From an uncultured Alphaproteobacteria bacterium (lineage in GTDB: Bacteria; Electryoneota; RPQS01): a stretch of 64,000 nt of DNA. Below the pieces are notes generated by a model that saw nothing but the letters and a program-made list of their open reading frames with translations, made no database searches and was not told the DNA's origin. Every line of letters starts with the position of its first letter. Positions within the stretch are counted from its first letter, which is position 1. This document shows, piece after piece, positions 8,058-55,511 of the stretch. The stretch spans positions 28,309-92,308 of the forward strand of contig CAZPKG010000011.1 in NCBI GenBank assembly GCA_964587105.1, in the 5' to 3' direction. Made by a program: the position numbers and the translations under genes.

Positions 8058-10577
8058 CTATTTACTCTCGTCGCGATTGATCAATACGGGATTCTGATTA
8101 GTTAGACCGGGCGTCGGCGGAGTACAATCCAGAGTCAGAACGAAGATTACTTCGTTTGATGGATTGGGTGCGAAAAACGTGTTGGCGAACGAACCCGCCG
8201 GGGTATAAAGCGACCAATCCGCCGAGTACGATGTCGGGAAAACTGCGCTCGGATTCGTTGACCACCAAAGTGTGATGACACCCGCCTCCTGTTGATGCCA
8301 TCTTACAGTGTAGGCATCCGCAGGGGTGGCAAGCATATTAATCGTCACGCTGTCCGGAGCCGGACACGGCGGAGTAAGACAGAAGGCAAAATCATACGGC
8401 GGCTGCGATGAAGTCCCGTCTCCAAACGGCGAGGTTACCCATGTCCACGGACAGTCCGTATCACCTACCTTTGCCACGCTCATTAAGCCGCTCGGAATGC
8501 CGCAGGGCGGATGAATTTCCACGTCGTATTGGGATAAATACCTCGAGTTGAAATATAGATCCGGCAGCAGCGTTCCAGTTGCCGTAACGGTGTACTCGCA
8601 CGTGTTTCCGCCGTCTGTAAAGTAAAGACGAAATGTCTCAAACTCGCTGCAAGTACCCGTAAAACCCCAAAACCGCACGGCGCCGACTGGCTCCGGCGTG
8701 ACGTAATTGTCATACTGAATCTGACTGAAATCGATATGTGACGTGAATGCTTGCGGAGACTCCGAGTTCATCGCTGGCAGTTGACCGACCACACTACGGT
8801 TGCCGCATTCTGCGCGGATCGGGCACGGCGTATCGCAAGTAACACCCTCCGTGAACAAGCCGCCCATTGTTTGGCACATAGACAGACTCGTGATCTCGCA
8901 GCCGGGCGACTGAGGATCGCCATAACAGCAGCGGCCGTAACAAGAACTTACCGTGAGTTCAAATTGACCACAGTCAGTGTGATAGGCTTCGACAGTTAGA
9001 TAGTAGCTACCCGAGCTTAAATAAGCACAGTTAATCGCGGATAATCCTGCGAAACCACAACCGTCGTCATCCTCATAAAAAGGAGAGCCGTCGCATGTGG
9101 GCGTCAAGTATATATAACTGTCCCAAAAGTCGTTGCCATTGCAAAGTGAAAATCTCCACTCCCCATTAGACGGAATGTTCACGAAGAATGTGTAATCTTC
9201 ACTCGGCCGAAGGGGATTGTTGTTGCCTGCGCCGCACGTATTCGCCACAGCCGTGCCCGGTGCCTGCAGGAAACCGTCTATCCGGCAACCGCTGCAAGGA
9301 ATGGCGTTAACCCGCACACGGTATTCGCGGAAATCAGGGGCAATATTCAGCGCATCCGTTGCCAGAAATAGAGTGTAATCGCCCGGCTGCACACATGGAA
9401 CTCTGTAGGTTAAAGTCGAACAAGGAATGGCCTGAAACTGGTTCAAGTACGTTGTGTAGTTGCAATCGAAAGAAGGAAAACTGTTGAGTTGCAACCGAAT
9501 AGGAACTTCGGTTCTGAGCGTGATGTCCAGTGAACATGGCTCCAGAATTTGGAAATAGTACCAATCCTGATCATGTTGGCCATTCGTGGCCCACGTACGG
9601 CCGCAAACAGTCTGAAAAAGACTGATCCCCTGAATGGAATTATATCCGTTACAGAAGTAATTGCAATCGAAAACAGGATCACCACCTATTTCCTCAAACG
9701 CGCATTCAGGAACGTCATTCGGCTGACACTCAATGCTGCAATTGCCTGTGATGTTCAAAACATAACTGCCCGCACTGCTGTTGTATCCATCCACGATGAT
9801 GTAATAAACCTGTCCGGCAGTAAGGTACAACGACAGATAAGATTGAAGACTGGGACTATTGTCGTCGTTACAGCCAACTGAAAAGATACCCGGGCATGAG
9901 CCCAATGTGTGCACATACAGATAGGTGTCATACGATGAACCCATCAGTGAAATAGCGTAAAAGTCGGTTATCGTCGGAGTAAACTCATAGACTACGTCAG
10001 GTGCAAAGGTCGAGTTACACGCGGAAATAGGATTGAAATCGTTTGCGCGTCCCACAGTTGTTCCCGTATCGGTGTAAGGAATTCCGGTGATGACCGTGGC
10101 CGGACAATTGTCACTTCCTTGATCAAGCGGATTGCGTTCGCGATTCTCCGGCCGTTGCTGATACAGTGCATTCAATTGTTCTTTCAAACTTGCAAAGGTC
10201 ACTTCGTCAACCGACTGAGACTGCGCGCCGCCACGAGCCTGAAGCTCGAGTTCTCGAATCTGCTCTTCAAGCGGGGTCAATTCAGTTGGGCGAATTAACG
10301 CACCGGCTTCAAAGCCTCCGTCAACCCGACCGGACTGGAGATCGTGCACCACATTACCGGAGTGTCTCTTGACTGGTGGAAGCAGCTCCTCAATTCGTGT
10401 CATCCAAGCCGGATCAGGCGTCTCCCCTGTAGCTTTTGCGTTAGCAATCAACTCTTTAAGCTCAGAAATTTCAGCCTTTGCGTCGCGAAATGCGTCCGGC
10501 TGTGTAGCGCTCAAATCGGCTGCAACAACGAAACTATTACAGCAAAGAACAACAATCGTGAACAGCAGTTTCTTCAT
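8058..10577 (-). CDS. Giant secreted Cys-rich multidomain protein, paralog A1 (PPC-type domains, C-terminal Fn3-like domain)
   Basis: Signal peptide MKKLLFTIVVLCCNSFVVAA. Conserved module ...RPENRERNPLDQGSDNCPATVI. PPC-like domain (DVVYEF...YDTYLYV...CNDD...AGQVYYIIVDGY). C-terminus WWSTNPSAVFP...VLTLDC is Fn3-like. RBS GGAGAcgatATG. Confidence 0.8.
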   Translation of the reverse strand: MKKLLFTIVVLCCNSFVVAADLSATQPDAFRDAKAEISELKELIANAKATGETPDPAWMTRIEELLPPVKRHSGNVVHDLQSGRVDGGFEAGALIRPTELTPLEEQIRELELQARGGAQSQSVDEVTFASLKEQLNALYQQRPENRERNPLDQGSDNCPATVITGIPYTDTGTTVGRANDFNPISACNSTFAPDVVYEFTPTITDFYAISLMGSSYDTYLYVHTLGSCPGIFSVGCNDDNSPSLQSYLSLYLTAGQVYYIIVDGYNSSAGSYVLNITGNCSIECQPNDVPECAFEEIGGDPVFDCNYFCNGYNSIQGISLFQTVCGRTWATNGQHDQDWYYFQILEPCSLDITLRTEVPIRLQLNSFPSFDCNYTTYLNQFQAIPCSTLTYRVPCVQPGDYTLFLATDALNIAPDFREYRVRVNAIPCSGCRIDGFLQAPGTAVANTCGAGNNNPLRPSEDYTFFVNIPSNGEWRFSLCNGNDFWDSYIYLTPTCDGSPFYEDDDGCGFAGLSAINCAYLSSGSYYLTVEAYHTDCGQFELTVSSCYGRCCYGDPQSPGCEITSLSMCQTMGGLFTEGVTCDTPCPIRAECGNRSVVGQLPAMNSESPQAFTSHIDFSQIQYDNYVTPEPVGAVRFWGFTGTCSEFETFRLYFTDGGNTCEYTVTATGTLLPDLYFNSRYLSQYDVEIHPPCGIPSGLMSVAKVGDTDCPWTWVTSPFGDGTSSQPPYDFAFCLTPPCPAPDSVTINMLATPADAYTVRWHQQEAGVITLWWSTNPSAVFPTSYSADWSLYTPAGSFANTFFAPNPSNEVIFVLTLDCTPPTPGLTNQNPVLINRDESK

Positions 10578-10668
10578 ATCGTCTCCATTGGTTAAGTATC
10601 ATCAAGATAACATAACACGACTATATTAGTCAAGAATTAACAAGTGTGAGCAAAATAAATCAAAAAAA

Positions 10669-10690
10669 GCGGCCCGATTGCTCGGGCCGC
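10669..10690 (-). terminator. Rho-independent terminator after paralog A2
   Basis: caaaaaaa-gcggcccg-attgct-cgggccgc. Confidence 0.65.
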
Positions 10691-10723
10691 CCTTCATGAG
10701 GTAATTTCCTCGGATCAATTCGC

Positions 10724-13336
10724 TTAACGCGTCACCGGATTATTCAGCGGGACAGGGGGCTGATTAATCTGAAGCATCGGAACGTCGCCACCCGGATTCT
10801 GAATTGCGATATTACTGCAATCCACGGTCAGGACATAGACGATTTCATTCGACGGATCCGGCGCATAGAACGAGTAGTTCATCAATCCACCCGGAACATA
10901 GCCACTGACCATCTGCGTGTATGTGGCAGGGAAAACCGCATTCGGATTTGCTGACCACCACAAATGCACAACGCCTTCCGGCTGCCACCATCTCAGTGTG
11001 TAAGCATCGGCGATGTTAGGATACAATTCAATGGTCACGCTGTCCGGCGAAAGGCACTGTCCGCCCAAGCAGAACGCGAGATTAGTTCCTGTGTCAAAGG
11101 GAGGTTGGCCGACCCAGTAACCGTTTGCGGTTGAGCCGTAGCCGGTGATCGCATATGACCAATAAAAGTTGCAGCCACTGCCTTGTTCAGCAATTTGCAC
11201 GTCACCGTTCAGAATCGTGCACGGCGGATTGAGTTCCGTCGAGTACTCGAGAATCCGGTAAGTGTTCCATTGCAGATACTTCGGAGTTCCTGTCAAAGTG
11301 ACGTTGTAAACCTGCGAAGTGTTGTTCACACTGTCAAAGAACGTGATTTGGAAGTTGTGCGGATCCGTGTTGCAGGCGCCCTGCTCAGCAAACACACCCC
11401 AGAACCTGATCGTACCAATCGGCCCTCCGACCAAGTAATCTTCGGCATTGAAGAAACCTTGATCCCCATCGGAGAGATTTGCATTCCACGGTTCATCGGG
11501 AAGCATCGGCAACTGACTGAGATAAGCGCCCGCCGTCGCGCAGGTCGGACGAGTGAAGCACGCGCCGCTTGAGCACGGTTCCATGTACGTCCACACTCCT
11601 CCGAGGCTGTCGCAGATTCCTTGTGACAATTGATTACAGCCGGGATCATCCGGATTGCCGTAGCAGCACGAGCCGATACATTCGAAAACATTCAACACAA
11701 ACGGACCACAGCCGGATGACCAGGCTTCCACCGTCAAGTAGTAGATGCCCGGATTTAGATGGACACAGTTGATCGTGGAAAGTCCGACGCCGCCGCAGCC
11801 GTCGTCGTCCTGTGCGATGACGCCGCCGTTACACGAACCTGACAAATAGATGTAGCTGTCCCAAATGCTGTCGTCGTTGCAAGTCGAAAATGTCCATTCA
11901 CCGGCATAAGGAATGTTCACGGCGTAAGTGTAGTCTTCGCTCGGACGCAAGGTGTTGTCGTCACCCGCGCCGCAAGTGTTCCAAGCTGCCGAACCCGGAG
12001 CTTGGAAATATGAATCAACTTGGCAACCGCTACACGGAACCAGATCAACACGAGCGCGATAGTCACGCGGAGTGTTTAGGCCGGTTTGGCTGGCGGGAAG
12101 AACGATGAGTGAGTATGTGCCAGGCTGGAGACACTGTGTTAAAAACGTGGCGGTCGAGCACGAGTATTGCCAGTCGTATGGACCGGAAACAATGGAGTAA
12201 GGACAGGAACCGGGAAAAACGTACATCTGTGATGCGAACTCCGCGTTGATCGTCAGCGCGAGCGAACACGGTTCAAAAATCGTAAAACGATAGGAGTCCA
12301 CGTCCCGGAAGGGCGAGTTAAAACTGGTGAGATACGTAAATCCGCGGCCGCATACAGTCTGGAACGGCAAAATGTCTTGCCACGATTCCGTGCCGCCGTA
12401 AAAGCCATCCTGACAAGAGCCGTTGCAATCTACCACCTCAAAACCGGGGCCGGGAACTTCAGCACACTCGAGAACATCGCTGGGCTGGCAAACAACATCA
12501 CAGTTGTCCGTGATATTGAGCACGTAGTTGCCACTGGCAACGTCAAAACCGTCTACGATGATGTAGTACGTCTGCCCGCCATTCAAGATGACCGAAACAA
12601 ACGACTGCAAACTAAAGTAATCGTCATTGCAGGCCACTTGAGTCGTACCGGGGCAACCGCCATTGGTATTGACATGAAGATAGGTGTCGTAGGACGAGCC
12701 TAACAACGAGATATTGTACGTCTGAGTCACTTGCGGAGTAAACTCATAAACAACATCGCTTGCATCACTAAAAGCGCAGTCCGAAATGGGGTTGTAGTTA
12801 TTGGCGAAGCCAACTGTCGTGCCGCCGTCCGAGTAAGGAACTCCACCGATAACCGTTCCCGGGCAAACATCATTGCCTTGATCGAGCGGATTGCGCTCAC
12901 GGTTCACGGGACGCTGTGCGTAAAGTTCATTCAACTGCTCTTTCAGATTCGCGAAGGTGACTTCGTCAACTCCCTGAAGGGACATTCCGCCGGACAGATG
13001 AAACTCCAACTCTTTGATCTGAGCTTCAAGCGGGGTCAATTCCGTTGGGCGAATCACCGCGCCGGGAGCAAAGCCTCCCTCGCTCTGAAACGCCTGCAAG
13101 TCCGCCGGGACTTTGCTCGCATGACCTTTAACGGACGGAATCAGCTCGCGAATCCGAGCCGTCCAGGCCGGATCGGGCGTCTGGCCTGTAGCCTTTGCCT
13201 TAGCAATCAGGTCTTCAAGCTTAGCAATTTCAGCCTTCGGGTCGCTCAATGTGAGCGGCACCGTCTGGCTTGGTCCAGCAGCAATAGCGTAGAATGCACA
13301 ACATAGGACAACAATCACAACTGACATTCTCTTCAT
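10724..13336 (-). CDS. Giant secreted Cys-rich multidomain protein, paralog A2
   Basis: Start moved to MKRMSVV (13336), which has the same RBS context (ccaatGGAGAtgatATG) as A1. Very similar to A1 and A3 at the N-terminal module and the C-terminal Fn3-like end. Confidence 0.8.
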   Translation of the reverse strand: MKRMSVVIVVLCCAFYAIAAGPSQTVPLTLSDPKAEIAKLEDLIAKAKATGQTPDPAWTARIRELIPSVKGHASKVPADLQAFQSEGGFAPGAVIRPTELTPLEAQIKELEFHLSGGMSLQGVDEVTFANLKEQLNELYAQRPVNRERNPLDQGNDVCPGTVIGGVPYSDGGTTVGFANNYNPISDCAFSDASDVVYEFTPQVTQTYNISLLGSSYDTYLHVNTNGGCPGTTQVACNDDYFSLQSFVSVILNGGQTYYIIVDGFDVASGNYVLNITDNCDVVCQPSDVLECAEVPGPGFEVVDCNGSCQDGFYGGTESWQDILPFQTVCGRGFTYLTSFNSPFRDVDSYRFTIFEPCSLALTINAEFASQMYVFPGSCPYSIVSGPYDWQYSCSTATFLTQCLQPGTYSLIVLPASQTGLNTPRDYRARVDLVPCSGCQVDSYFQAPGSAAWNTCGAGDDNTLRPSEDYTYAVNIPYAGEWTFSTCNDDSIWDSYIYLSGSCNGGVIAQDDDGCGGVGLSTINCVHLNPGIYYLTVEAWSSGCGPFVLNVFECIGSCCYGNPDDPGCNQLSQGICDSLGGVWTYMEPCSSGACFTRPTCATAGAYLSQLPMLPDEPWNANLSDGDQGFFNAEDYLVGGPIGTIRFWGVFAEQGACNTDPHNFQITFFDSVNNTSQVYNVTLTGTPKYLQWNTYRILEYSTELNPPCTILNGDVQIAEQGSGCNFYWSYAITGYGSTANGYWVGQPPFDTGTNLAFCLGGQCLSPDSVTIELYPNIADAYTLRWWQPEGVVHLWWSANPNAVFPATYTQMVSGYVPGGLMNYSFYAPDPSNEIVYVLTVDCSNIAIQNPGGDVPMLQINQPPVPLNNPVTR

Positions 13337-13442
13337 ATCATCTCCATTGGTTAGGGTATCAGATAAGATAACATAATATGATGTCATTTGTCAACAATTA
13401 GAGCATTCACACATATAGAGCATTCACACATAATAAAACAAA

Positions 13443-13485: not shown

Positions 13486-16092
13486 TTACTTGACTTCGTT
13501 CTGCGGTATGAACATGGGATTCAATGGAAGTCCTGTTGCAGGCGATGGGGCACCGCAATCCAAAGTCAAGACGTAAATAACCTCTGGTGACGGATCCGGT
13601 GCAAAGAACGCGTTGCTGTACGAACCTGCCGGAAGATTTAAGCTGAACAACTCCGTGTAGGTTGCCGGAAACACTGCGCTCGGATCTGTTGACCACCACG
13701 CGCGCACTAATCCTGCTGGCTGCCACCATCTTATGCTGTAAGCATCAGTGAAGTCGGGCAACATTCTGATCGTCAAACTATCGGGCGCAACGCACCCGGC
13801 ACTCAGACAGAATGCGAGTTCATGGTTCGACTCGAATGGCCCTTCTCCGTTATAGCTTACATGCGCAAACTGTCCATTGCCCAAAACGGTCCACGACCAG
13901 TAGAATTCACAGGATGGGGACGTCGACTCCACAACGCGAACCCAGCCGTTCGTGATTGTGCACGGCGGATTGATTTCGGCCGTGTACTCCAATAGCGTGT
14001 AGTCGTTGAAGTAGACAAGCGGAAGCACTGTGGCCGACAGCGTGACGTTGTAGGTCTGTGTCAAATTGTTCACACTGTCAAAAAACGTGATTTCGAAATT
14101 CTGCGGATTGGTGTTGCAAGTTCCGCCTTCGCTGAAGATACCCCAGAACCGAATGGAGCCGATGGCTGACGAGACTGAATAGTCCTCGTAAAACGCGTAG
14201 CCCGAATTCAAGTCCGACACGTTTGCATCCCACGGCTCGCCCGGAACAAAAGGCAACTGGCTGAAAATCACCTCGCCATCGCCGCAGTCAGGCCGCGTGT
14301 AGCACGCGGCGGCCGAACACGGCTCTTGATATGTCCATGCTCCGCCTAAAGCATTACAATCGCTTAGTGAGACATAATCGCAAGCAGGATATAGAGGATC
14401 GCCGTAACAACACGAACCCAAACACTCAAACACGTTCAGCACGAACGGGCCGCAGACATCTCCGGGCCCAGCTTCCACTGTTAAGTAGTAGTTGCCGGCC
14501 GAAAGATGCAGGCAGCTAATTGTTGAAAGTCCGGCATCGCCGCAACCGTTGTCATTCTCGGCAAAAACTCCGCCGCTGCACTCAGATGTCAAATACATGT
14601 AGCTGTCCCAAATGCTGTCGTCGTTGCACGTCGAAAACGTCCAATCCGATTCGTGGGGAATATTCACGACATATGTGTACTCTTGGCTGATGCGCAAACT
14701 GTTGTCATTACCCTCGCCGCAAGTGTTCTCCGCCGTGCTTCCCGGAGCTTGCAGGAAGTTGTCAATCCGGCAATTGTTGCAGGGAATCAAATCAACGCGC
14801 GCACGATACTGCTGCATCGAGTTAATCCCCGACCAAGTCGGCGGCAGAATCAAAACTGCGTAAGTGCCGGGCTGCACACACGGTGTCACAAACGTCACCG
14901 TCGAACAGGCATAAGACCAAGTTGGTGAGTTGTACAGCGAGCTCCACGGACATGTTGTGGTTAAGACCGCGACCTGGCTGCCGACCTCTGAATTCACTGT
15001 CACAGCAATCGAGCAGGCCTCAGTGATCGTCAAACGGTACGCGTCCACATCCGGAAGGATGAACGATCCATCTGCCGTGGGATGGGTGAAGGTGTTGCCG
15101 CACACCGTCTGAACGGGTAAGATGTCCTGAAAGGAAGCGACGCCTCCGAACATAGTATTGTTGCAACCTCCGTTGCAATCCGTTGTCTCATGACCCGGTG
15201 CAACCACTTCACCTGTGCACTCCAGAACGTCGCCGGGTTGGCAAGCGACTTCGCAGTTGCTCGTGACATTCAGAGTGTATGCGCCGGAATTGATGTCATA
15301 TCCGTCCACGATGATATAGTAAACCTGCCCGGCAGTCAGAGACAATGAAAGATAGGATGCGAGATTTGCGCCGTTGTCGTCGTTGCAGCCGACTGAGAAT
15401 ATTCCCGGGCATGAACCCAACGTGTGTACATAAAGATATGTGTCATACGATGAGCCCATCAGCGAAATGTTGTACACCTGACTTATAGCCGGAGTAAACT
15501 CATAGACTACATCAGGCGCGTTCGTGTTATTGCACGGACTGATTGGACTGAAGTCATTCGCACGCCCGTCGGTCGAGCCGGTGTCAGAGAAGGGAACTCC
15601 TGTGATTAGCGTGGCAGGACAAAAATCATTGCCCTGATCAAGCGGATTGCGCTCACGGTTTTCCGGACGCTGTGCATAGAGCGCGTTCAACTGCTCTTTC
15701 AAACTCGCAAAGGTGACCGGATCAACGCCTTGAAATGACAGGCCTCCGGAAAGCTCAAACTCGAGCGCGCGAATCTGCTGCTCGAGCGGGGTCAAATCTG
15801 TTGGGCGAATCACCGCACCCGGAGCAAAGCCTCCATCCAATTGAAAGGCCTCGAGATTAGCAGGCACTTTACTCGCGTGACCTTTGACCATCGGAATCAA
15901 CTCGCGAATACGAGTTGTCCATGCAGGGTCAGGGGTTTGGCCTGTGGCCTTTGCTTTAGCAATCAGGTCTTCAAGCTCTGTAATTTCAGACGCAGGTGAT
16001 TTCAATCCCTGCAACAATGACGAGTTCTGTCCAGAAGCAATTGCACATAATGAGCAACATAAAACAACAATCGCAAGCAACAATCTTTTCAT
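13486..16092 (-). CDS. Giant secreted Cys-rich multidomain protein, paralog A3
   Basis: Signal peptide MKRLLLAIVVLCCSLCAIASG. High identity to A1 over the first ~270 aa (ERNPLDQGNDFCPATLI..., SYDTYLYVHTLGSCPGIFSVGCNDDN). Fn3-like C-terminus. Confidence 0.8.
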   Translation of the reverse strand: MKRLLLAIVVLCCSLCAIASGQNSSLLQGLKSPASEITELEDLIAKAKATGQTPDPAWTTRIRELIPMVKGHASKVPANLEAFQLDGGFAPGAVIRPTDLTPLEQQIRALEFELSGGLSFQGVDPVTFASLKEQLNALYAQRPENRERNPLDQGNDFCPATLITGVPFSDTGSTDGRANDFSPISPCNNTNAPDVVYEFTPAISQVYNISLMGSSYDTYLYVHTLGSCPGIFSVGCNDDNGANLASYLSLSLTAGQVYYIIVDGYDINSGAYTLNVTSNCEVACQPGDVLECTGEVVAPGHETTDCNGGCNNTMFGGVASFQDILPVQTVCGNTFTHPTADGSFILPDVDAYRLTITEACSIAVTVNSEVGSQVAVLTTTCPWSSLYNSPTWSYACSTVTFVTPCVQPGTYAVLILPPTWSGINSMQQYRARVDLIPCNNCRIDNFLQAPGSTAENTCGEGNDNSLRISQEYTYVVNIPHESDWTFSTCNDDSIWDSYMYLTSECSGGVFAENDNGCGDAGLSTISCLHLSAGNYYLTVEAGPGDVCGPFVLNVFECLGSCCYGDPLYPACDYVSLSDCNALGGAWTYQEPCSAAACYTRPDCGDGEVIFSQLPFVPGEPWDANVSDLNSGYAFYEDYSVSSAIGSIRFWGIFSEGGTCNTNPQNFEITFFDSVNNLTQTYNVTLSATVLPLVYFNDYTLLEYTAEINPPCTITNGWVRVVESTSPSCEFYWSWTVLGNGQFAHVSYNGEGPFESNHELAFCLSAGCVAPDSLTIRMLPDFTDAYSIRWWQPAGLVRAWWSTDPSAVFPATYTELFSLNLPAGSYSNAFFAPDPSPEVIYVLTLDCGAPSPATGLPLNPMFIPQNEVK

Positions 16093-16231: not shown

Positions 16232-18667
16232 TCATTCAATCTTGATAAACTGTCCTGGCGACTCCTCACCTGCTATCGGTGGTGGGCCGCATTGTGCCGT
16301 GATAATGTAACGACGATTCGGGACTGCGGTGTTGTCAGTACCGAACCAATCTCCTGCCGGTAACGATCCAGCCAAGAGCACGGTGTAAGTGGCGGGATAG
16401 ACCGCGTCTATGTTGTCACTGTAGTACAGTCGCACATAAGACGCTTCGGGCAAATGGAACATGATGTCGTATGTATCTGCCGCCGCACGGCGAATCACGA
16501 CGCTATCCGGCTTGGGACAGCCGCGGCCTAAACAGATACTCACGTCATACGGCAAGTCTACCGGATCGCCCGGATGATGCAGCACAACCGATCCGTTGCC
16601 TTGCGGAGAAGTCACCCACGCAAACACGCATGCATCATTCGATGTGCCGCGCACCCGCACGCGACCCGAAAGAATATTGCAATTCGTCGGCAGATCAAAA
16701 TCATACTGATAGACAGGAAATTGCGCACCGTAATTCTGCGGCACCTGATACCCGTTAATGGTGCCGGTGTATGTCTGCACGGCGGGGCCGTTCGCACTGT
16801 CCACAAAGGTAATCTCAAACGACTCTGGCTGTGTGAAACAGGGCAGACCGTTATTGTAATCGGTGTACAAACCCCAGAATCGGACAGAAGAGATAGGCCC
16901 AGTAACGGTATAGTCTTCCCACAAACTGTAATTGATGTACACGTCCGATGCCACCGCCGTCCATGTTTCCGTCGGCAAATGCGGCAGCTGGCTGAATTGT
17001 GACCCATCTTCACATTGCGGCCTCACTCCGCAAACTTCCGGCGAGCACTCTTGCCCCAATGTGAATTCTCCTCCCAAACTATTGCACGCCGAGAGTGTGC
17101 CATACGAGCATTGTTGATTGTAGTAATCGTTGCCGTAACAGCACGAGCCGAGGCACTCAGAAGCTTCAAGCGCCCATGCGCCACAGTCTGCGGCACCCGC
17201 GCCTTCCACAGTGAGATAGTAATTACCCGGCATGAGAGTGACACAATCTATGCTTGATAAGGGGCCACACGCGTCGTCGCTTTGCGCGATAATCTGACTG
17301 TTGCATGCGCTTGTTAAATAGAGATAGCTGTTCCACTCCGCAGACGAACCGCACAACGAGAATGTCCAATCAGAGGCGTACGGTACAATGATGCACATCG
17401 TGAAATCTGCACTTGGCCGCAGACTATTGTCATTGCCTTGGCCGCACGTCGTGAAGAGCGTAACCGAGGCAGGTAACGTGATCTGCCCTTGATCAACCTT
17501 ACAACCGGAACAGGGGAACTCTTCAATCATGAAGAGATAGGGAAGCTGAGACGGAGCGCCTGAATAGAAATTCGGCGCGATGTTGATGGTATATGTACCA
17601 GCAGGCAAACACTGTGTGACCGGAGCTAAGACAGAACAGGCAGGCAAGTTGGCATAATAGAAAATCCCAGTCGGCACACATCCGTCGTAATTGGACAGCC
17701 AGAAATCGAAGGTAAACGACGTGATGACATCAAGTTTCAAACTGCACGGTTCGGTCAGAGTGAAGTAGTAGCTGTCAATGTCACGTGCCGGAAAATTGTT
17801 CTGATCCGTGTAGGTGAACACGTTGCCGCGCATAAATTGACAGTGATTCGCGGGCTGATACTGTTCAAATCCGCCGTTCCAAATGTTGTTGCAGCCGCCG
17901 TTGCAATCCCACGCGGCGTGCATCGGATCGTTCAGACTCTCTCCGCACTCCTGCTGAAAGCTGCTCGATTGCGCGAGCAAACAGCCGTTGTTAATGGTCA
18001 GAACAAAGTTGCCGGAGTGGTTGTTGGCGCCGTCAATGATGATGAAATACTCTTGTCCGGCATTCAACATCACGATGACTTCGGAATACGACCCAAACAT
18101 ATCATCGTTGCAGGAAACTTGGGTATTTCCCGGACACGCGCCGCCCGTGTTGACATAGAGCTGCGTATCATAGTTGGAGCCGTAGAGCGAGATGCGAAAA
18201 GTTTGCGATGTGGCCGGAACATAGCGATAGATTTTGTCCGGCGCGAAAGTCGTCCCGCACGGCGTTATCGGGTTGAAGTTGTTTACTGCGCCGACAGTCG
18301 TACCGTAATCAACGAACGGAATAATCCCCGACGGAATTGTTGTGGCAGGACACGCATCCGATCCGTCATCAAGCGGACTTCGCTCGCGCGGTTGTTGACC
18401 GAGAAGTGCGGCCAGTTCGAGTTCGAGTTGTTGATAGGTCGCACTGTCGAGTGCCGTTGAACGACCGTAGTTTTGCATGTGCCATTCGAGGTCTGCAATC
18501 TGCTGTTCCAGCGGCGAGCGATTCTGCGGATGCAGAATCAACGCACTTTCAAGATCAAACGGTAACTCTTCACCATTTGGACAAGATGCGCTGGCAATAT
18601 TTGCGCTGAACGCAAATAGCAGAACCAGAAACCCGGACAGAAGCACTGTGATCCTCTTCATGATCAT
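16232..18667 (-). CDS. Giant secreted Cys-rich multidomain protein, paralog A4 (subfamily 2)
   Basis: Signal peptide. Module LEQQIADLEWHMQNYGRS...RERSPLDDGSDACPATTI. PPC-like domain. Shared central blocks with A5 (HAAWDCNGGCNN, IEEFPCSGCKVD, YYLTVEG). C-terminus YPATY...C. Confidence 0.75.
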   Translation of the reverse strand: MIMKRITVLLSGFLVLLFAFSANIASASCPNGEELPFDLESALILHPQNRSPLEQQIADLEWHMQNYGRSTALDSATYQQLELELAALLGQQPRERSPLDDGSDACPATTIPSGIIPFVDYGTTVGAVNNFNPITPCGTTFAPDKIYRYVPATSQTFRISLYGSNYDTQLYVNTGGACPGNTQVSCNDDMFGSYSEVIVMLNAGQEYFIIIDGANNHSGNFVLTINNGCLLAQSSSFQQECGESLNDPMHAAWDCNGGCNNIWNGGFEQYQPANHCQFMRGNVFTYTDQNNFPARDIDSYYFTLTEPCSLKLDVITSFTFDFWLSNYDGCVPTGIFYYANLPACSVLAPVTQCLPAGTYTINIAPNFYSGAPSQLPYLFMIEEFPCSGCKVDQGQITLPASVTLFTTCGQGNDNSLRPSADFTMCIIVPYASDWTFSLCGSSAEWNSYLYLTSACNSQIIAQSDDACGPLSSIDCVTLMPGNYYLTVEGAGAADCGAWALEASECLGSCCYGNDYYNQQCSYGTLSACNSLGGEFTLGQECSPEVCGVRPQCEDGSQFSQLPHLPTETWTAVASDVYINYSLWEDYTVTGPISSVRFWGLYTDYNNGLPCFTQPESFEITFVDSANGPAVQTYTGTINGYQVPQNYGAQFPVYQYDFDLPTNCNILSGRVRVRGTSNDACVFAWVTSPQGNGSVVLHHPGDPVDLPYDVSICLGRGCPKPDSVVIRRAAADTYDIMFHLPEASYVRLYYSDNIDAVYPATYTVLLAGSLPAGDWFGTDNTAVPNRRYIITAQCGPPPIAGEESPGQFIKIE

Positions 18668-41186: not shown

Positions 41187-41436
41187 ACTCTTGCTCCCGT
41201 TTACTAAGTTTTTTGCCAGGTGATGCCGCCGACAGATTGACGACACTCCTGTAATTGCGCTAAACTGCTCCTTCTTCCCAAGGAGGATAAGTAGCTTAGC
41301 GGAAATGTCCCGAATTGTCAAGACCCTCACCACTTGCCCACAAAATAAACGGTGTTCACCAATAGCAAAATCAAAAGAAGGTTGCCAAAACGAAACAGAC
41401 GGCCCGAAGGCCGCCTGCGACAGAAAAGCCGGTGCC

Positions 41437-43602: not shown

Positions 43603-43691
43603 CCGAGTCTCCTTAGTATTTGCTGCAATATAACAACGGAATATGACCAAAACAAGAATATTTGTGATTCAACAAGAATTTCCAAGAAAAA

Positions 43692-43741: not shown

Positions 43742-46700
43742 TTATTTGCCGACGGACTTTTCTTCGACTTCGTTGTTGTCTTGGATGTGCGGATTTGAAA
43801 TCTCGACTGAGTTCACCGCCTGATCTTTAGGAAGCTGATCACCAATGGCCATAAGTCCCGGACCGTCCGCGCCGACGGCTACGACTTGGAAGAAGCCCAT
43901 CATATCGGGTGTGCTCAGGCCGCCGCTGACAGTGGCCTGAGGTGAGGTTGTGGTTAAGATCAGATTGCCCGGTGCGACAATAGCGGCTTGATTTGTCGAG
44001 TAGTAAACCTGATAAGACAGGGCATTGGCGGTCGCTCCCCAATAAAGGAAGATGTCGTCGCTGCCGTCATTGGCCAGAATGACCAGATCGTCAACAGGGT
44101 CAGGCGTCGGCGCAACGCACGGAGTTCCGCTTACGTTGATGACGTAGTTACCGCAATTCGTGCTGAAGCCGTGCACGAGGAATTGATAGTTGGTGTTGGC
44201 TTGCGCTTGGAAGGTGGCGGTGCTTTGAAGAACGTAATTCCCGCCGCAATAATTGTCGTCATTGCAGACAATCAGCGGAGCGATATTCGGGCAAACGCCG
44301 CCGTAGATTCCCAGACCGGTGTCGTAGTTTGAACCACAGAGCGAAACCGTGACGTCCTGACAGGTATTCGAGTAGTAGTTGTAAACCATCTCGCGCGAAT
44401 CTACGCCGACGCATGGCGTGTAGTTGTCAGCCATGCAGCAAGTGTTGCCGTAATCGGTGAACGGGAGCGAGGGCACATTGATGCCTGGGCAAACGTCGCC
44501 GTAGGGCATGCCCTGCGGTGCGCCGCCGGAAACATAAAGCATGAACTGTCCGGCAGCGTCGTTGTATCCGCTTACGATGATGTAGTAAGTGCGGTTGGCT
44601 TCCGCGTTGAACAAGACAGAACTTTTGAGACCGTTATTGCCGCAGGCATCATCGTTCCACGCAACGACCGTTGAGCCCGGGCACGGTCCTCCCGTGCGGA
44701 CTTCGAGGCCTGTGTCGAACAGTGTTAGTGCATCGTCACAGGTGTGAACCTGAAGCACTTGACAAACAGGTGAGGTGTATTGGAAAAATACCTCTTTCGA
44801 GCTGGGGCCTACGATAGTTGCAAAATCATCCGACGCAGGCCGCGTATCGCCGAAATCGTTAAACGGCAGACCGGTGATTACATACGGTGTTTCGCAGTCA
44901 TCGTTGTACACTTCGAGTTCGAGTGACGACATTCCTTCCGCGCCGTTAAATCCGTCCATGTGAATGTAGTATGTCGCACCGGCGCCGGCATCAAATACGA
45001 CGGTACTCGCAAGAGGATCTCCACCGCAAGTGTAATCGTCGTTACAGCCCGCGCTCCACGTTCCCGGACAGGCGCCGCCATAGCGCACGTCGAGAATCGT
45101 GTCAAAGTTTGTGAAGCAGGTTTTCGCGCGCATGGTTTGGTTATACGGTGAAACCCAATACCAATGCACATCCTGACCGTCCTGAGTCGGGCGGCATTCG
45201 GGGTTCACGTCGTCGTTGCCGCACCACGTCGCGCCATAAGTGAAATAGGGAATCTCGGTGATTTGATAGCCGGGACACTGTGCGTTGCCTTGCGCACCGG
45301 CGGCAACACCGGTTACATTCAGCGTAAAGTTACCCCAAGACGAGGCATAACCTTCTAAAACGATGAGATAAGGCACGCCGCCCTGCGCAGTGAAGGTCAC
45401 TTGACTTTGCGCGCCACAGAAGTCGTCATTACAGCCCGCGCTCGTAAACCACTGCATACATGCGCCGATCTGGAAAATGAAAAGCTGAGTGTCAAAGTTC
45501 GAGCCGCAAGTTGAGACGGTGACCGTATGATCACACGGCAACTGAAGCTGGTACATTACTTCGGGAGAAGTGTTTGTGTTGCAGCCACTCACGGTGTTGA
45601 AATTATTGGCGGCAAATTGCGTGCTGCCGGAAACGGAGAAGGGAAGCGTTGTGATTGTGGTGAAGCCGGGTTGTCCGCACGAATCGTTGGGCGGGCCAAA
45701 CGGCTGCCAGTAGTTACCTGTTTGCGAGCCGCTGTTGTTGGGATCAAGCCAATCACGCACGCGGCTTGAGGAATTTCCGCCGCCATCCCAACTTGAAGAG
45801 AGTTTGCCATAACGATCCAGCTGACTGGGCATTCCACAGCCGGAGAGACCGCCGTGCAGCTGACCAATAACGCGGCCACTGCTGGCGATCAACGGAGAAC
45901 CTGAAGAGCCGCCTTCGGTGACGCCGTTATCCCAATCCACGCGCCAATGTGTGTTAGGAAAGCTGCCGTTCCAATCGGCGCTCACGGGTGCTGAATAATC
46001 TTCACTGCCTTTCTTCACATCGCCGGAAGGATGGTGAATACCATAGGTTGAGCCCGGAGCAGTGCCACCACGATCCCAGCCCATGAATGCGGGAATATAG
46101 CCCGTGTTCGGACGCGGACGCGACAGACGCAAAAGTGCGAAATCCGAGTTTACCCAGTTGGCCAACAAGCTCGCGTTGGCGATGACGCTGTTGGTCGGGC
46201 CGTCGGTGTTGGGTGAGCACGCTGCGCTTTCATAATTAAAGACAAACTGCCAATTGGTGTGATTACCGTTCAAGCAATGATCGGCAGTCAGAAATAGCGG
46301 ATCACCGTTTTGAAGGGTGTTGTTTAGCATCGTGCCGCTGCACCAACGACCGACAGACGGATCAAAGATCATCGCAACGGCACGCTTTTCTTCCTGCATG
46401 TAGCCGAAGCAGTTGATGTTGACGTTACAGGCGCCTGAGCTGCCAAAAACGTCGAGCGGATCGCGCTCACGGACATCGTCTCGGTTAAACATGTGTCGGT
46501 AGCCGTGCAACACGGTTTGGATTGACAGCTCGTTTGTGCCTTCTGTCCCTTCAGGGATGACGAGTTCAATCGTCATGGCGCTGCCGATGATGAACGGCGA
46601 GATGTTCGTGCCGTCCCAATTGTCAATGTAAGTGAACGGCCCTTCGACTTGGGTGTGGGAATCGTTGTAGTAATAGATTTCGCACGGCTTGACCAGCTGC

Positions 46701-47071
46701 CAGCCGTCGAAGTGAAGACAGAGATCGGTTGCGTCGGGAGATTCAATCCGCAATCTCCAAACACGTGCGCCGTTAGGGAGAGTTTCCCAACTGCCGGAAT
46801 TGCTGAGATTCAGATGAACGGGCAGCGGAATTGACGAGCGAAACGGAATAGACTCGCCCGACAAACGCGCGGCCTCAATTTCTGATTCGTCTTCAGCCTT
46901 GAAGACACTGTTGTCCTGCAACGGCATCACAACTGAGCTTGGCGCGGGCACGGAAAATTGCATGCTGGGCGCTTGAACCGGCAGATTGACGGCTTGGTAC
47001 TGTGCCATTGCAAGTGAACTGCCCAGACACAGAAGCACAAGCAAATACATCGATAATCTTAACTTCTTCAT
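43742..47071 (-). CDS. Giant secreted S1-family serine protease with five PPC-like domains and a C-terminal Fn3-like domain
   Basis: Signal peptide MKKLRLSMYLLVLLCLGSSLAMA. LTADHCLNG ... DFALLRL ... GGSSGSPLI protease domain, a paralog of the 38715 protein. Repeated C.G..IT.IPY...G.T domains. C-terminus LSYQVYYSTN...FFQVVAVGADG is Fn3-like, with no T9SS CTD. Confidence 0.8.
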   Translation of the reverse strand: MKKLRLSMYLLVLLCLGSSLAMAQYQAVNLPVQAPSMQFSVPAPSSVVMPLQDNSVFKAEDESEIEAARLSGESIPFRSSIPLPVHLNLSNSGSWETLPNGARVWRLRIESPDATDLCLHFDGWQLVKPCEIYYYNDSHTQVEGPFTYIDNWDGTNISPFIIGSAMTIELVIPEGTEGTNELSIQTVLHGYRHMFNRDDVRERDPLDVFGSSGACNVNINCFGYMQEEKRAVAMIFDPSVGRWCSGTMLNNTLQNGDPLFLTADHCLNGNHTNWQFVFNYESAACSPNTDGPTNSVIANASLLANWVNSDFALLRLSRPRPNTGYIPAFMGWDRGGTAPGSTYGIHHPSGDVKKGSEDYSAPVSADWNGSFPNTHWRVDWDNGVTEGGSSGSPLIASSGRVIGQLHGGLSGCGMPSQLDRYGKLSSSWDGGGNSSSRVRDWLDPNNSGSQTGNYWQPFGPPNDSCGQPGFTTITTLPFSVSGSTQFAANNFNTVSGCNTNTSPEVMYQLQLPCDHTVTVSTCGSNFDTQLFIFQIGACMQWFTSAGCNDDFCGAQSQVTFTAQGGVPYLIVLEGYASSWGNFTLNVTGVAAGAQGNAQCPGYQITEIPYFTYGATWCGNDDVNPECRPTQDGQDVHWYWVSPYNQTMRAKTCFTNFDTILDVRYGGACPGTWSAGCNDDYTCGGDPLASTVVFDAGAGATYYIHMDGFNGAEGMSSLELEVYNDDCETPYVITGLPFNDFGDTRPASDDFATIVGPSSKEVFFQYTSPVCQVLQVHTCDDALTLFDTGLEVRTGGPCPGSTVVAWNDDACGNNGLKSSVLFNAEANRTYYIIVSGYNDAAGQFMLYVSGGAPQGMPYGDVCPGINVPSLPFTDYGNTCCMADNYTPCVGVDSREMVYNYYSNTCQDVTVSLCGSNYDTGLGIYGGVCPNIAPLIVCNDDNYCGGNYVLQSTATFQAQANTNYQFLVHGFSTNCGNYVINVSGTPCVAPTPDPVDDLVILANDGSDDIFLYWGATANALSYQVYYSTNQAAIVAPGNLILTTTSPQATVSGGLSTPDMMGFFQVVAVGADGPGLMAIGDQLPKDQAVNSVEISNPHIQDNNEVEEKSVGK

Positions 47072-47271: not shown

Positions 47272-47943
47272 ATGATTCTGCAGACCCGTTCCCACCCCAT
47301 CTCCCTCCTCAACTCACCTGAGCCGAACAGTCAGCTTGAAGCAATCAACCGTTTGCCGAATCCGCCGCTGATTCCGCTGGCGGCTGAAGATATTCATGTG
47401 CGCCGCTGCCGTTTGGCTGGTGATGCGATTGACGGTCATCTGGGCTGTTTTCGCACGAGCGATTTGGAAGACATTCTGAAGCTTGCGCACGGCGCGCCCG
47501 CATTGATCGGGCACAACCGTTATGCAATTGCCGTCGCGAGATTTTTTGGCGGCACCGTTGAAACACATCAGAACCACAAATACATCGTGCCGAATTTCTA
47601 TTGGCCGAAAGCGCACAGCGGCGCGGAAGACTTTCGCATTTTGCTTGACAGCGGCATCATCACCGAGGCCTCGATTGCGTTCACGTTCAACAAACCGAGT
47701 TGTTCTATTTGCGGCCACGATATTCGTGAATGCGAACACGATCCGGGCGTCATGTACGGGCAGCAACTCTGCCACTACTGGTATGACGGTGTAGATAGAG
47801 TGCTTGAAGGCAGCTTTGTCTATCGCGGCAGCGAGCCGGGAACAGGCGTGCTGGCAGAAATGAAAAATGTTCGCAGCGAACTAAAAAACCGCAGAATGAA
47901 ACTGCGGTTGGGGGGACGTGTGTACGAGGTTCTTCCTGCATAA
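47272..47943 (+). CDS. Phage prohead protease-like protein (HK97 gp4 / S78-like, putative) with C-terminal Cys/His cluster
   Basis: LIGHNRYAIAVARFFGG resembles the His block of prohead proteases (LLWGHD..PIGR). ITEASIAFTF resembles the GASIGF Ser block. CSICGHDIRECEHD is a possible metal site. RBS GGAG. The only plus-strand gene in this part of the window. Confidence 0.45.
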   Translation: MILQTRSHPISLLNSPEPNSQLEAINRLPNPPLIPLAAEDIHVRRCRLAGDAIDGHLGCFRTSDLEDILKLAHGAPALIGHNRYAIAVARFFGGTVETHQNHKYIVPNFYWPKAHSGAEDFRILLDSGIITEASIAFTFNKPSCSICGHDIRECEHDPGVMYGQQLCHYWYDGVDRVLEGSFVYRGSEPGTGVLAEMKNVRSELKNRRMKLRLGGRVYEVLPA

Positions 47944-52476: not shown

Positions 52477-52500
52477 ACGGGGCCGCAGATGCGGCCCCGT
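52477..52500 (-). terminator. Rho-independent terminator after six-PPC-domain giant gene
   Basis: gaaaatgcaa-acggggccgc-agat-gcggccccgt. Confidence 0.6.
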
Positions 52501-52523
52501 TCATGGACAAGTTGTTGAGAATG

Positions 52524-55511
52524 TTATTCTCGCGGTGTGACGATGTTAGGATGTTGCGGCATGACGACCGTGGGTACTACATCGCAGGGTGGGTGATTCG
52601 CCTCGCAATAAGCAACAACTTGATAGATCCAGATTTCGTTGATCCCATTGTTGATGATGACGCCTTCATGGAGGAATTGCGTCGCGGTGGTTGAAGCAAC
52701 ATAGTTTGCAGGTTGAACGATGTTCAAGCTGTTGTTGTTGCTCGTGCGGTAGATTCGGTACTCTGTGGCACCCAAAACCGGAGTCCAATAGAGCGCAACG
52801 TTTTGAAGCGAATCGGAGACACCCATTGAATCCGGATAGTGAATTACCAAACTATCTGGAGCTTGGCAAACGGTCGGTTCGCATGGTGAACAGACGGCGG
52901 CAAGTGCATAGTCCCAGCAATTCACAAATTCGAGTCCGGTCGGGCGGAACTCAACGAGATAAACACCTTGCGGCAGACAAAGCGAGATGCACTGAATGCC
53001 CTGACAGCCGACGACGTAAATGCAATCGAGCAAATCACGATGGGCACATGGATCGAGCGATGGGCCCGGTCGGTAGATGCTCAAATAGCCATTGAATTCG
53101 CTGGTTACACAGAGTCTGACCTGACTTGGATCGCCAACACGCAAGCCGTACCAATCGGTGTCAGTGTAGTTCGGATCAGAATAGCCTGTTCCGCAGTAGG
53201 TATCGCCACAACCTATCGGGAGGAAGCGATGCGGCGTTGTATTGCATCCGCCGTCAGTTGTGTCAATAAACGATGGACATGGTTCGTTTTCGAGAATAGC
53301 CTGCGGCGGGCAGGTGATTTCACACGGTGGGCGGCAATCGCAGAATGTACAGCCGACCGCCAAAATGTACGGCCCTTGTGTCGCTAACTCACCGTACACG
53401 TGAATGAAATAGAATCCGGGCTCCAGACACGCTGTTATTAAGCGGGAATCTTCGCCTATGCCGCCGTCAGAGTCCTGTCCAATCAACGTCTGGCAATCGC
53501 TATCCCATACTTCGACGGCTGGGTCAAGCCCCTGTCCGAACGGGTATTGATTGTCTGTATCGTTGCCGAGAACATCGATGATGAGTTGAGTGCAGAATTC
53601 GAGCTGTATCAGATACCAATCGTGATCCGGCGCTGCGGCTCCTTGAATTGCTCCACAGTAGGATTGACCACACTCGACACGCGGATCGAATGTGCCGCAC
53701 TGATTGTTGATCGGCTCAATGTCGTTGTTGGGCCAGGGACATGTGTCGCACGGCGCACACGAAGTTGCAAGGATATATGGGCCGCTGGTGAAGTCTTCCT
53801 GCTGGACTTGGATGTTATAAGACCCTTGCGGCAGGCAAACTTCAAGGCGAGCATCTTCGCCGATACCGCTTGCCGTGTCAACGCCAAACACCCATGTGCA
53901 GCCGACTCCGACGATTCTGACCATCGGATCAAGTCCCTGACCAAAGGGATACCAGCCCGGAGTATCGTCACCGAAGACGTCAATTGTCACGCGTTGGAGA
54001 CCTGCGCCGACAACGGTAAGCAAGTACCAATCCACATCATTCGGTGTGGTTATGTCTCCGCACAATGTATCTCCGCAGACCATCGGCGGATTGAAGGTGC
54101 CGCATTGGTTGTTCAGGGCCTCGTTGTCGCGATTGGGATAGTCACAGGTGTTAGGACATTCGCACGGAGTGCAACTGACTGCAACGACATACGGACCGAA
54201 CGATTGATTCTGCGGTTGACCTTGGACGTACAACCGGTAGATTCCGGGTCTGAGACAAAGCGAGTCAATGCGTGCATCGTTTCCGGCGCCGCTGTTTCCG
54301 TCAAATGCGATGGTCGAATCACATGAGACGTTGATGATGAAGACTTGCGGGTTCAGACCTTGTCCAAACGGGAAATAACCGGGTGTGTCGTTGCCAAAGA
54401 CGTCAACGGTGACATTTTGACAGCCGGGGCCTTGGATATCGAGATAGTAATAATCTTGCCCATCCTGTCCGGGTGTGATGTTACCGCAAATCGTATCGCC
54501 GCAGGTCAATACAGAGCCACCGGCGAGGCAGGCATTATTGGGTTCAAGATCGCCGTCAGGGTAGAGACAGCTCGGACAATCACATCCGGTGCACGTCACC
54601 GCAAGTTCGTATGGCCCAATACTTCCGACGCCTTCCACGAGTATGTAGTAGGAACCGGCGCGGGTACAAAGCGAATCAATAACCGCATCCAAACCAATAC
54701 CGCCATCATCGTCTTGGGCAACCATCGTCAAGCAGTCACCTGTCCAAAGCGAAACTTTGGGGTTCAAGCCCTGTCCTTCCGGCCAATGGCCAGGCGTATC
54801 ATCGCCGAAGACATTTATGCGGACGTCGGAGCAGGGGAATTGTGTGAAACTGAAATGATACCAATCGCGGTCGGCTGTAGTGGAAATTTCACCGCATAGA
54901 CGATCGCCGCATGCGACATTCGGGATATTCGGTCCGCAAGCGTCGTTGATAGGCTCGAAGTCGCGCGATGGGAACGGGCAAGTGTCTTGTGCGCAAGGTG
55001 TTTCAGGGCAAGCTTGGCCTTGCACGACGTTGAAAACGTAGTTGCCGGAATTGGGAGCCGTTGAGCCGCCATCTACAACTACAAAATACTGGGTATTGGC
55101 AAGCAAAGTCACGCCACTGCAGCAGGCATCGTCGCCGCAGACGTTGTCACTGCAGCAGACCAACACGCCACCGGACGTCGGACAGCCGCGCCAGATAGTA
55201 AGGGCCGTGTTGTAGGGCGAGCCACAAAGCGAGAAAGAGAGTATGCTCGTTACCGGGGGTGTCAACGTGTAAACTACGTCGGGAGCGGCACTGCCGGTGT
55301 TACACGTTACCGGGTAATCGTTGACGTGCCCCGAAGTTGTTCCAGTGTCGCAAAACGGGATGGTTGTGATGGCTACGGCGGTGGCGCAGGTTTCCCCGCC
55401 TTGGTCAAGGGGGTCATTTGGATTGCGGTTTGCCTCGTCGTTGGCGGCCCAGAGGGGTAGTGAAAGGAGCAGGAGCAGGAGGGCTGAGCACAGGGTTTTA
55501 CATCGGTACAT
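52524..55511 (-). CDS. Giant secreted protein with one N-terminal and six tandem ~110-aa PPC (pre-peptidase C-terminal) domains, C-terminal Fn3-like domain
   Basis: Start at MYRCKTLCSALLLLLLSLPLWA (RBS AGGAG). Six repeats of CP..C.YP..D.EP.N.C...CGDT.CG.I....D.DWY......C..V.IDVFG.DTPG..PFGQGL.P.V........DG..G...DA...CL..G.Y...V...GPY.LAV. Fn3-like C-terminus (EYRIYRT...IYQVVAYC). Confidence 0.8.
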   Translation of the reverse strand: MYRCKTLCSALLLLLLSLPLWAANDEANRNPNDPLDQGGETCATAVAITTIPFCDTGTTSGHVNDYPVTCNTGSAAPDVVYTLTPPVTSILSFSLCGSPYNTALTIWRGCPTSGGVLVCCSDNVCGDDACCSGVTLLANTQYFVVVDGGSTAPNSGNYVFNVVQGQACPETPCAQDTCPFPSRDFEPINDACGPNIPNVACGDRLCGEISTTADRDWYHFSFTQFPCSDVRINVFGDDTPGHWPEGQGLNPKVSLWTGDCLTMVAQDDDGGIGLDAVIDSLCTRAGSYYILVEGVGSIGPYELAVTCTGCDCPSCLYPDGDLEPNNACLAGGSVLTCGDTICGNITPGQDGQDYYYLDIQGPGCQNVTVDVFGNDTPGYFPFGQGLNPQVFIINVSCDSTIAFDGNSGAGNDARIDSLCLRPGIYRLYVQGQPQNQSFGPYVVAVSCTPCECPNTCDYPNRDNEALNNQCGTFNPPMVCGDTLCGDITTPNDVDWYLLTVVGAGLQRVTIDVFGDDTPGWYPFGQGLDPMVRIVGVGCTWVFGVDTASGIGEDARLEVCLPQGSYNIQVQQEDFTSGPYILATSCAPCDTCPWPNNDIEPINNQCGTFDPRVECGQSYCGAIQGAAAPDHDWYLIQLEFCTQLIIDVLGNDTDNQYPFGQGLDPAVEVWDSDCQTLIGQDSDGGIGEDSRLITACLEPGFYFIHVYGELATQGPYILAVGCTFCDCRPPCEITCPPQAILENEPCPSFIDTTDGGCNTTPHRFLPIGCGDTYCGTGYSDPNYTDTDWYGLRVGDPSQVRLCVTSEFNGYLSIYRPGPSLDPCAHRDLLDCIYVVGCQGIQCISLCLPQGVYLVEFRPTGLEFVNCWDYALAAVCSPCEPTVCQAPDSLVIHYPDSMGVSDSLQNVALYWTPVLGATEYRIYRTSNNNSLNIVQPANYVASTTATQFLHEGVIINNGINEIWIYQVVAYCEANHPPCDVVPTVVMPQHPNIVTPRE

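Follow-up and report, generated by a model that had tools for sequence, protein, structure and literature searches.

The secreted proteins encoded in a 64,000-nucleotide stretch of contig CAZPKG010000011.1 from an uncultured bacterium (the window, by which that whole stretch is meant) show three kinds of C-terminus: the type-A C-terminal domain (CTD) of the T9SS (type IX secretion system), found in six genes, and two Fn3-like modules, class 1 in eight genes and class 2 in three. The evidence leans modestly towards class 1 being a lineage-specific, disulfide-stapled, six-strand variant of Fn3 that forms the end domain of a modular secreted family, with class 2 a plain Fn3 domain and neither ending a mark of type-A T9SS cargo. 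The genes run from window position 8,058 to 58,877, all on the minus strand, and Sec-type signal peptides, judged by eye from the sequence, stand at the N-termini of the array proteins. The modular proteins that the interval encodes are Sec-exported, rich in cysteine and all-beta, and represent an expansion specific to the lineage; they are assembled from PPC/GBD-like modules together with a small number of sandwich domains of uncharacterised type. Its closest database relatives are uncultured metagenome-assembled genomes (MAGs) labelled "Calditrichaeota bacterium", "candidate division KSB1" or "bacterium" at NCBI. Lipoprotein anchoring of the array proteins was ruled out by the absence of a lipobox from the signal peptides (…VVLCC…AIA|SG). 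Some secreted proteins of the interval, for example 48000 and 35461, carry neither a CTD nor class 1 nor class 2; hence an earlier sequence-only reading, according to which the secreted proteins end in either a CTD or an Fn3-like module, holds for the proteins that it listed and not for these others.

Class 1 was delimited with a profile hidden Markov model (HMM) built from the C-terminal ~100 residues of the A-family proteins (A1 to A6) together with database homologs. In the window this profile matches A1-A6, 30665 (expectation value, E, 4e-16) and 32701 (E 9e-8), each at the end of its open reading frame (ORF), and no other protein; a six-frame scan of the window gave the same eight members. 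The profile fails on 41437 (E 3.4), 43742 (E 0.15) and 52524 (E 0.034). The eleven Fn3-ended proteins had been taken as bearers of a single terminal family, which cannot be maintained when three of them are missed, although the accompanying statement that all eleven lack a T9SS CTD was borne out by the HMM scans and the six-frame scan. The ending in a shared terminal Cys, also claimed for them, applies only to 30665 (…GCQQ) and 32701 (…VCP), since A1-A6 run 17-30 residues past the Cys and class 2 has no Cys signature. Furthermore, A1-A6 are full-length paralogs with 37-60% identity over ~800 residues, so that a common C-terminus is expected from this paralogy and does not by itself indicate special conservation of the tail.

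The class-1 module of A1 (839 residues, 8058..10577) lies at 8088-8384 (E 8e-32) and is followed by a tail of 21 residues past the Cys. In the paralogs A2 (10724..13387) and A3 (868 residues, 13486..16092) the module occupies 10766-11074 (E 2e-33) and 13516-13812, with tails of 30 and 22 residues, the A3 assignment being based on the HMM, AlphaFold2 (AF2) and Foldseek. A4 (16232..18667) carries it at 16238-16537 (E 4e-33) and terminates in …GQFIKIE, A5 (18677..21157) at 18737-19021 (E 3e-23) and A6 (23564..25891) at 23579-23872 (E 4e-31). The two members outside the A family have other architectures. Protein 30665 (30665..32659) consists of two PPC-like modules, a unit termed mid1 and a further PPC-like module before class 1 at 30671-30916 (six-frame E 8.5e-20), and its C-terminus reads …LNGCQQ; protein 32701 (32701..35196) has three PPC-like modules and an unknown region before class 1 at 32707-32967 (six-frame E 5e-15) and ends in …VKVCP.

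Class 1 is a divergent Fn3-like sandwich of ~85 residues. The AF2 model of the A3 module (predicted local distance difference test score, pLDDT, 80) has six strands followed by a disordered tail, and Foldseek returned weak immunoglobulin (Ig)/Fn3-like matches for it (template modelling score, TM, 0.3-0.45; best E 7e-3), the T9SS CTD being absent from the top 50 matches. At E<=10 the tails of both classes go unmatched by every Pfam and NCBIfam model, PF00041 (Fn3) included, in a scan whose positive control, the CTDs of the window, was matched at 1e-9 to 1e-11, TIGR04183 included. Against PDB sequences the class-1 profile gave no match at E<=0.1, and those at E>0.3 were chance-level antibody matches. 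The proposal that this module stands apart from known models was therefore upheld for class 1, which constitutes a family of its own with no Pfam or NCBIfam model.

As far as sequence comparison can tell, class 1 is remotely related to class 2. Their profiles align with an hhalign probability of 89.5% (E 2e-6) over strands A-C, that is, the first half of the domain, and in some proteins both HMMs match the same stretch, which amounts to almost the entire domain in P0134, some three-quarters of it in P0124 and about half in P0135. The alignment and the proteins matched by both profiles point to class 1 as a divergent offshoot of the class-2 superfamily. Its distinguishing traits include a loop, DPNAV[FY]PAxY, and a conserved pair of cysteines, the first just before strand A (C-x2-3-DS-[VL]-T-I) and the second directly past the last strand (…[VI]-x-[VL]-x-x-x-C). 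Both cysteines are retained in most members, be these terminal or internal, and P0116 is without both. The six strands would correspond to A to F of the Fn3 fold, with strand G missing and the last strand, …IYVLTLDC, equivalent to strand F; the two cysteines would sit at the same end of the sandwich, where they would form an intradomain disulfide that staples the ends of the domain.

A close comparison is with bacterial Fn3 domains such as the Clostridium thermocellum Fn3-like domain 3MPC and that of CtXyl5A (5G56), with which class 1 has in common the PDSLTI… start and a tyrosine-corner-like F strand. It differs from them in the DPNAV[FY]PAxY loop, the bracketing Cys pair, the presumed lack of a G strand and a near-constant last position, and where Fn3 is a seven-strand ABE/C'CFG sandwich the AF2 model of class 1 has six strands. 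The pre-peptidase C-terminal domain (PPC, PF04151) and the C-terminal extensions of secreted proteases are likewise accessory beta-sandwiches, found where secreted proteases and binding proteins of bacteria end; class 1, however, is not a PPC domain and is a separate unit downstream of the PPC-like modules.

In A3 the order of domains is signal peptide, coiled coil, PPC-like module, beta-sandwiches, PPC-like module, Cys linker, a unit termed 'core', class 1 and tail. The full-length model (pLDDT 76) displays, after the signal peptide and the coiled coil, a chain of PPC/CUB-like sandwiches with no enzyme fold, and the A-family profile matches in the PDB only a PPC domain and coiled-coil designs. 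The idea that A proteins are hydrolases was dropped, since full-length A3 retrieved neuropilin, Cry protoxin C-termini and CUB arrays in Foldseek and no enzyme fold; judged from the models, the A proteins look like binding or adhesin-type proteins. Almost all the array proteins share as a building block a cysteine-rich PPC/GBD-like module of ~120 residues. Its motif, D.C..A…PDVVY…GS.YDT.L…C.PG…CNDD…YYIIVDGY…G.Y.L.V, occurs at window 9747-10112 and at ~30 further sites, Pfam PF04151 and PF23759 recognise it only weakly, and MAGs of many phyla contain the module too, Planctomycetota, Zixibacteria, Eisenbacteria, Krumholzibacteriota and Myxococcota being among them.

Class 2 presents a different picture. 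Its profile matches the PDB Fn3 domain 3mpc (3.6e-7) and an internal Fn3 of 5g56, and on these matches to solved domains class 2 is a plain Fn3 of the bacterial kind. Behind it comes a tail that varies between proteins; it is essentially absent from 41437 and measures ~41 residues in 43742 and ~25 in 52524. A word-index database search with the class-2 profile returned only two short fragments. Protein 41437 (41437..43650) is a PPC-like array with class 2 at 41446-41670 (E 3e-28) and the C-terminus …YVVTSSVID. Protein 43742 (43742..47071) is an S1 (Trypsin_2) protease with four PPC-like modules, class 2 at 43868-44119 and a 41-residue tail ending in NPH…NEVEE…K, and 52524 (52524..55595, with its start likely at 55511) has one PPC-like module and an unknown region, class 2 at 52602-52868 (E 8e-26) and a 25-residue tail. 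The S1 protease has a paralog in the window, 38715, which ends in a type-A CTD. That the two differ in their terminal module is correct, but this is not the only difference, as had been stated, given that PPC-like modules number four in the former and two in the latter. Relatives of the S1 protease end variously in a CTD, dockerin, PKD, TSP3 or Fn3.

Beyond the Fn3 domain, the tail of 43742 (window 43745-43870) contains an end peptide kept in its orthologs P0150-P0162 (…K.DAVQ…ENPH..MTNE[IV]EEQAYKNGK), in a group whose post-Fn3 tails are ~40-50 residues long, and the peptide may act as a propeptide or as a short linear signal. A separate tail motif, [IVL]P[AV]Y-x8-10-PNP[ND]K, is shared by class-2 proteins that have other passengers.

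The third kind of ending, the type-A CTD, terminates 21298, 26038, 27661, 36935, 38715 and 57522 (PF18962, E 1e-8 to 3e-11), and the two CTD tails scanned with TIGR04183, those of 26038 and 38715, both match it. When an HMM made from the window CTDs was run over all six frames, exactly six copies were located; a seventh, sought in the same six frames, was not found. Six of the seven type-A CTDs previously counted are thus confirmed, and the seventh, attributed to an LVIVD "pseudogene", is the CTD of 21298 counted twice, because 21298 continues the LVIVD ORF 22180-23388 in frame (open frame 21301-22179). This LVIVD repeat gene (21298..23388) has an in-frame stop at 22180-22182; its upstream ORF, 22180-23388, holds the signal peptide and its downstream part, 21298-22152, the type-A CTD (21301-21573). 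At the corresponding site of a related locus (L003) there are two separate genes, one of 400 residues without a CTD and one of 410 residues with a CTD. Therefore, the interrupted window gene may be a fusion or truncation rather than the result of a simple nonsense mutation.

The remaining CTD genes were identified with PF18962 and the six-frame HMM, and 26038 and 38715 with TIGR04183 as well. They are a secreted protein of 483 residues (26038..27489, CTD at 26041-26313), an LVIVD beta-propeller protein (27661..28914, CTD at 27664-27936), a secreted protein (36935..38422, CTD at 36938-37210), the S1 protease paralog with two PPC-like modules (38715..41444, CTD at 38718-38987), whose true start is probably ~86 codons downstream of the listed TTG, and a Peptidase_S51-like secreted protein (57522..58877, CTD at 57525-57794). 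The CTDs of 26038 and the LVIVD proteins are 73-83% identical on passengers that are unrelated, and CTDs with 75% identity are borne by two passengers that have only 34% identity to each other. Such high identity across unrelated passengers fits a tag read by a shared machinery, and the type-A CTD is the real sorting tag of these arrays.

Against this domain both Fn3-like classes were compared. The type-A CTD and class 1 have in common that they are C-terminal beta-sandwiches of ~80-100 residues on Sec-exported proteins of a bacterium of the Fibrobacteres-Chlorobi-Bacteroidetes (FCB) group, within the same gene arrays, but the PNPF… and the C-terminal KxxLxK motifs of the CTD are not present in class 1. 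Aligned with the type-A CTD by hhalign, class 1 reaches a probability of 0.4% and class 2 of 0.07%, and neither PF18962/TIGR04183 nor the type-B model PF13585/TIGR04131 matches class-1 or class-2 tails at E<=10. The type-A CTD is a compact 3+4 seven-strand Ig-like sandwich whose conserved extreme C-terminus is required (PMC11285876). Class 1 departs from this fold, with six strands in the AF2 model, no common C-terminal motif and tails that vary from 1 to 30 residues, although it resembles the CTD in its location at the extreme C-terminus of proteins carrying signal peptides. On these alignments and model searches, neither class is detectably related to the type-A CTD, and neither matches type B.

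The distribution of class 1 was surveyed by hmmsearch (E<=1e-3) among all 1.84 billion protein cluster representatives, 71 of which contain it. These were pooled with further database homologs and with the window proteins, giving 108 distinct proteins with a full domain. Several results of this survey weigh against a purely structural role. In 100 of the 108 proteins class 1 lies within 45 residues of the C-terminus, and this strong bias holds across different junctions, since the domain is preceded by at least four kinds of upstream unit: the A-family 'core', PPC-like modules, 'mid1' and unrelated regions, one of the latter lying in a beta-propeller protein (P0124). To be last so often, after several junction types, is far from random placement in proteins of 5-10 domains. 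One subgroup stops 0-2 residues past the Cys (…YKRYVVVHxC[PEGQR]). An intact class 1 and a type-A CTD were found together in none of the ~290 proteins examined, the sole overlap being P0131, a CTD protein with two short partial class-1-like stretches, and an A-like passenger, P0061, has other modules and then a CTD in place of class 1. The mutual exclusivity that had been proposed for CTD and Fn3-like module accordingly stands for intact class 1 and falls for class 2, which in P0195 immediately precedes a type-A CTD. As for genomic context, each of the first five class-1 contigs inspected has type-A CTD (Por_Secre_tail) genes within 10 kilobases (kb). In a set of 79 GTDB loci containing A-like genes, class 1 is confined to close relatives, and all these class-1 loci but one, a contig of 3.6 kb, also hold CTD genes. 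The homologous passengers found in phyla without T9SS are devoid of class 1; homologous passengers in MAGs of Planctomycetota, Holophagae and Zixibacteria stop at an 'FCL' boundary or continue past it differently, for example with other modules.

The C-terminal bias, the exclusivity with the CTD, the CTD-rich contexts and the passenger differences would also fit a lineage-specific sorting or anchoring domain. According to this explanation class 1 would be a new C-terminal domain, either a fourth kind of T9SS CTD or another envelope-attachment tag, read by a dedicated machinery of the Calditrichota-like lineage. There is a precedent in the type-C CTD of ChiA, a T9SS signal outside the A and B models (PMC10202324). 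Type-B (PF13585/TIGR04131) and type-C (ChiA, cl41395) domains are alternative C-terminal signals missed by the type-A model, and several CTD classes can coexist (PMC10202324). As to the lineage itself, the Caldithrix genome paper is silent on T9SS and no paper was found that joins Calditrichaeota with type IX secretion.

Conservation argues in the other direction. Among 39 A-family sequences class 1 has a mean pairwise identity of 36% against 39-55% for the other domains, which places it among the least conserved parts of the protein, and the tail past it, at 17%, is the least conserved of all. Class 1, less conserved than its passenger, behaves as an ordinary vertically inherited domain, the opposite of the window CTDs, which are more conserved than theirs. 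Also unlike a CTD, it is found away from the C-terminus. Intact copies with both cysteines are located directly after the signal peptide in P0112, P0117, P0125 and P0129, in the first two of these in front of PPC arrays, and in mid-protein in P0123 and P0142; degenerate tandem copies are present in P0089, a protein with a Myxococcota-like genomic context. The poorly conserved, disordered tails of 17-30 residues that A1-A6 add after the module are hard to reconcile with the conserved extreme C-terminus needed by type-A CTDs, as are the six predicted strands with the seven of the CTD sandwich. Finally, type-B cargo usually has an adjacent cognate gene of the PorP/SprF family (PMC10202324), and no PorP/SprF-like gene is among the scanned window ORFs or the called genes of six related loci (L001-L006). 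With no type-A homology, no type-B match and no such neighbour, the candidacy of the module as a non-canonical T9SS CTD found no support. Its broader designation as a sorting, anchoring or processing signal describes a possible function, but none of the tests capable of showing sorting or anchoring did so. On balance, class 1 is judged rather unlikely to serve in sorting or anchoring.

The opposite explanation, that the terminal modules are generic Fn3 domains without special meaning, whose appearance as a class arises from the paralogy of A1-A6 and the commonness of Fn3 in secreted proteins, describes class 2 well. Besides the full-length paralogy of A1-A6, it draws on the ordinary Fn3 domains of the PDB that class 2 matches, one of them internal, on the position of class 2 ahead of the CTD in P0195 and on the many different C-terminal appendages of the S1 protease relatives. 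It accounts poorly for class 1, which is recognised neither by PF00041 nor by any other model, has its own Cys-pair signature, has only 71 representatives in the whole protein collection and is the last domain at several types of junction, and as an explanation of the terminal modules as a whole it is quite unlikely. Hence the assertion that the module is something other than a generic internal Fn3 is valid for the position-biased and unmodelled class 1, with the reservation of its intact N-terminal and mid-protein copies, and not for class 2. A further possibility, that class 1 is an incomplete Ig/Fn3 domain without strand G, completed in cis by the amphipathic tail of A1-A6 or in trans by a partner and serving attachment or oligomerisation as in donor-strand complementation, would agree with the six predicted strands, with the many members that stop 0-2 residues past the Cys closing strand F and with A-family tails ending in alternating hydrophobic residues plus a charged one (PFRKIE, PFVRIE, IFQKID, NPVLILRDESR), but is most improbable when AF2 leaves the tail undocked (tail pLDDT 33-54 in both models), the tail is the part of lowest identity, the strand assignment depends on the alignment to class 2 and no partner has so far been identified.

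In the interpretation favoured here, class 1 would be an end domain with a structural or binding function that accompanies its passenger family, and probably not a secretion tag. Proteins with class-1 or class-2 endings use the Sec pathway for export and are probably not type-A T9SS cargo; they would be retained in the periplasm or envelope, or would exit the cell by another route. The comparisons above establish the limits of the domains, how the families relate, how rare class 1 is, its bias in position and its conservation; the disulfide, the missing G strand, the localisation of the proteins and the lack of a sorting function are inferred.

The genes on the plus strand that are dispersed among those of the array are part of a phage head module (window 2909-8007, 29303-30595 and 47272-47943), which includes a major head protein (3543-4691), a terminase large subunit (6355-8007), a portal protein (29303-30595) and a phrog_16951 protein (47272-47943). 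On an IMG/VR contig (L087, positions 1-6718) the same head genes are contiguous and collinear within 7 kb; the module comprises a virion protein, the major head protein, p121, p274, the large subunit of the terminase, the portal and a phrog_16951 protein. It is split in the window by minus-strand blocks of secreted-protein genes, of 21.3 kb between the terminase large subunit gene (terL) and the portal gene and of 16.7 kb between portal and p223. Related MAGs (L001, L002, L003/L009, L008, L018, L073) show the split layout as well, with insertion states that vary among them, and in L073 terL and portal are still adjacent. Compared with related MAGs, the head genes are 93% (capsid), 87% (portal) and 70-75% (terL) identical, and the secreted proteins wedged between them 42-57% (A family) and 42% (LVIVD). 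That the head genes are far better conserved suggests that the module has been maintained and is possibly domesticated. In some nanopore-derived MAGs the homologs of terminase and portal are broken into several frames (L003/L009, 12613-13976; L018, 16142-17417), which could reflect pseudogenisation or assembly indel errors. Downstream of the array, at window 58896-63313, are a 255-residue ORF (58896-59663), an RDD-family protein (61420-62052), a phosphoribosyltransferase and OMP decarboxylase (pyrF); therefore, given these ordinary chromosomal genes past the array, the window is part of a bacterial chromosome and not of a free phage genome. The splitting of an intact head module by the arrays may be of greater consequence, for understanding how such secreted-protein families expand.

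Prediction of T9SS cargo in the FCB group depends on CTD models, and a large share of the secreted multidomain proteins of this lineage bears an unmodelled terminal domain instead. Should class 1 prove no more than a structural variant of Fn3, a new domain model would annotate proteins of ~800 residues that are at present blank, and would also correct an over-reading of terminal similarity among paralogs. The alternative with the wider scope, that class 1 is an unrecognised sorting or surface-anchoring domain of Calditrichota-like FCB bacteria, be it a fourth T9SS class or a G-less Fn3 that docks by strand complementation, and provides a second export or attachment route parallel to the type-A CTDs, is unlikely; if it were true, a new route of export would come to light in an uncultured lineage of phylum level.

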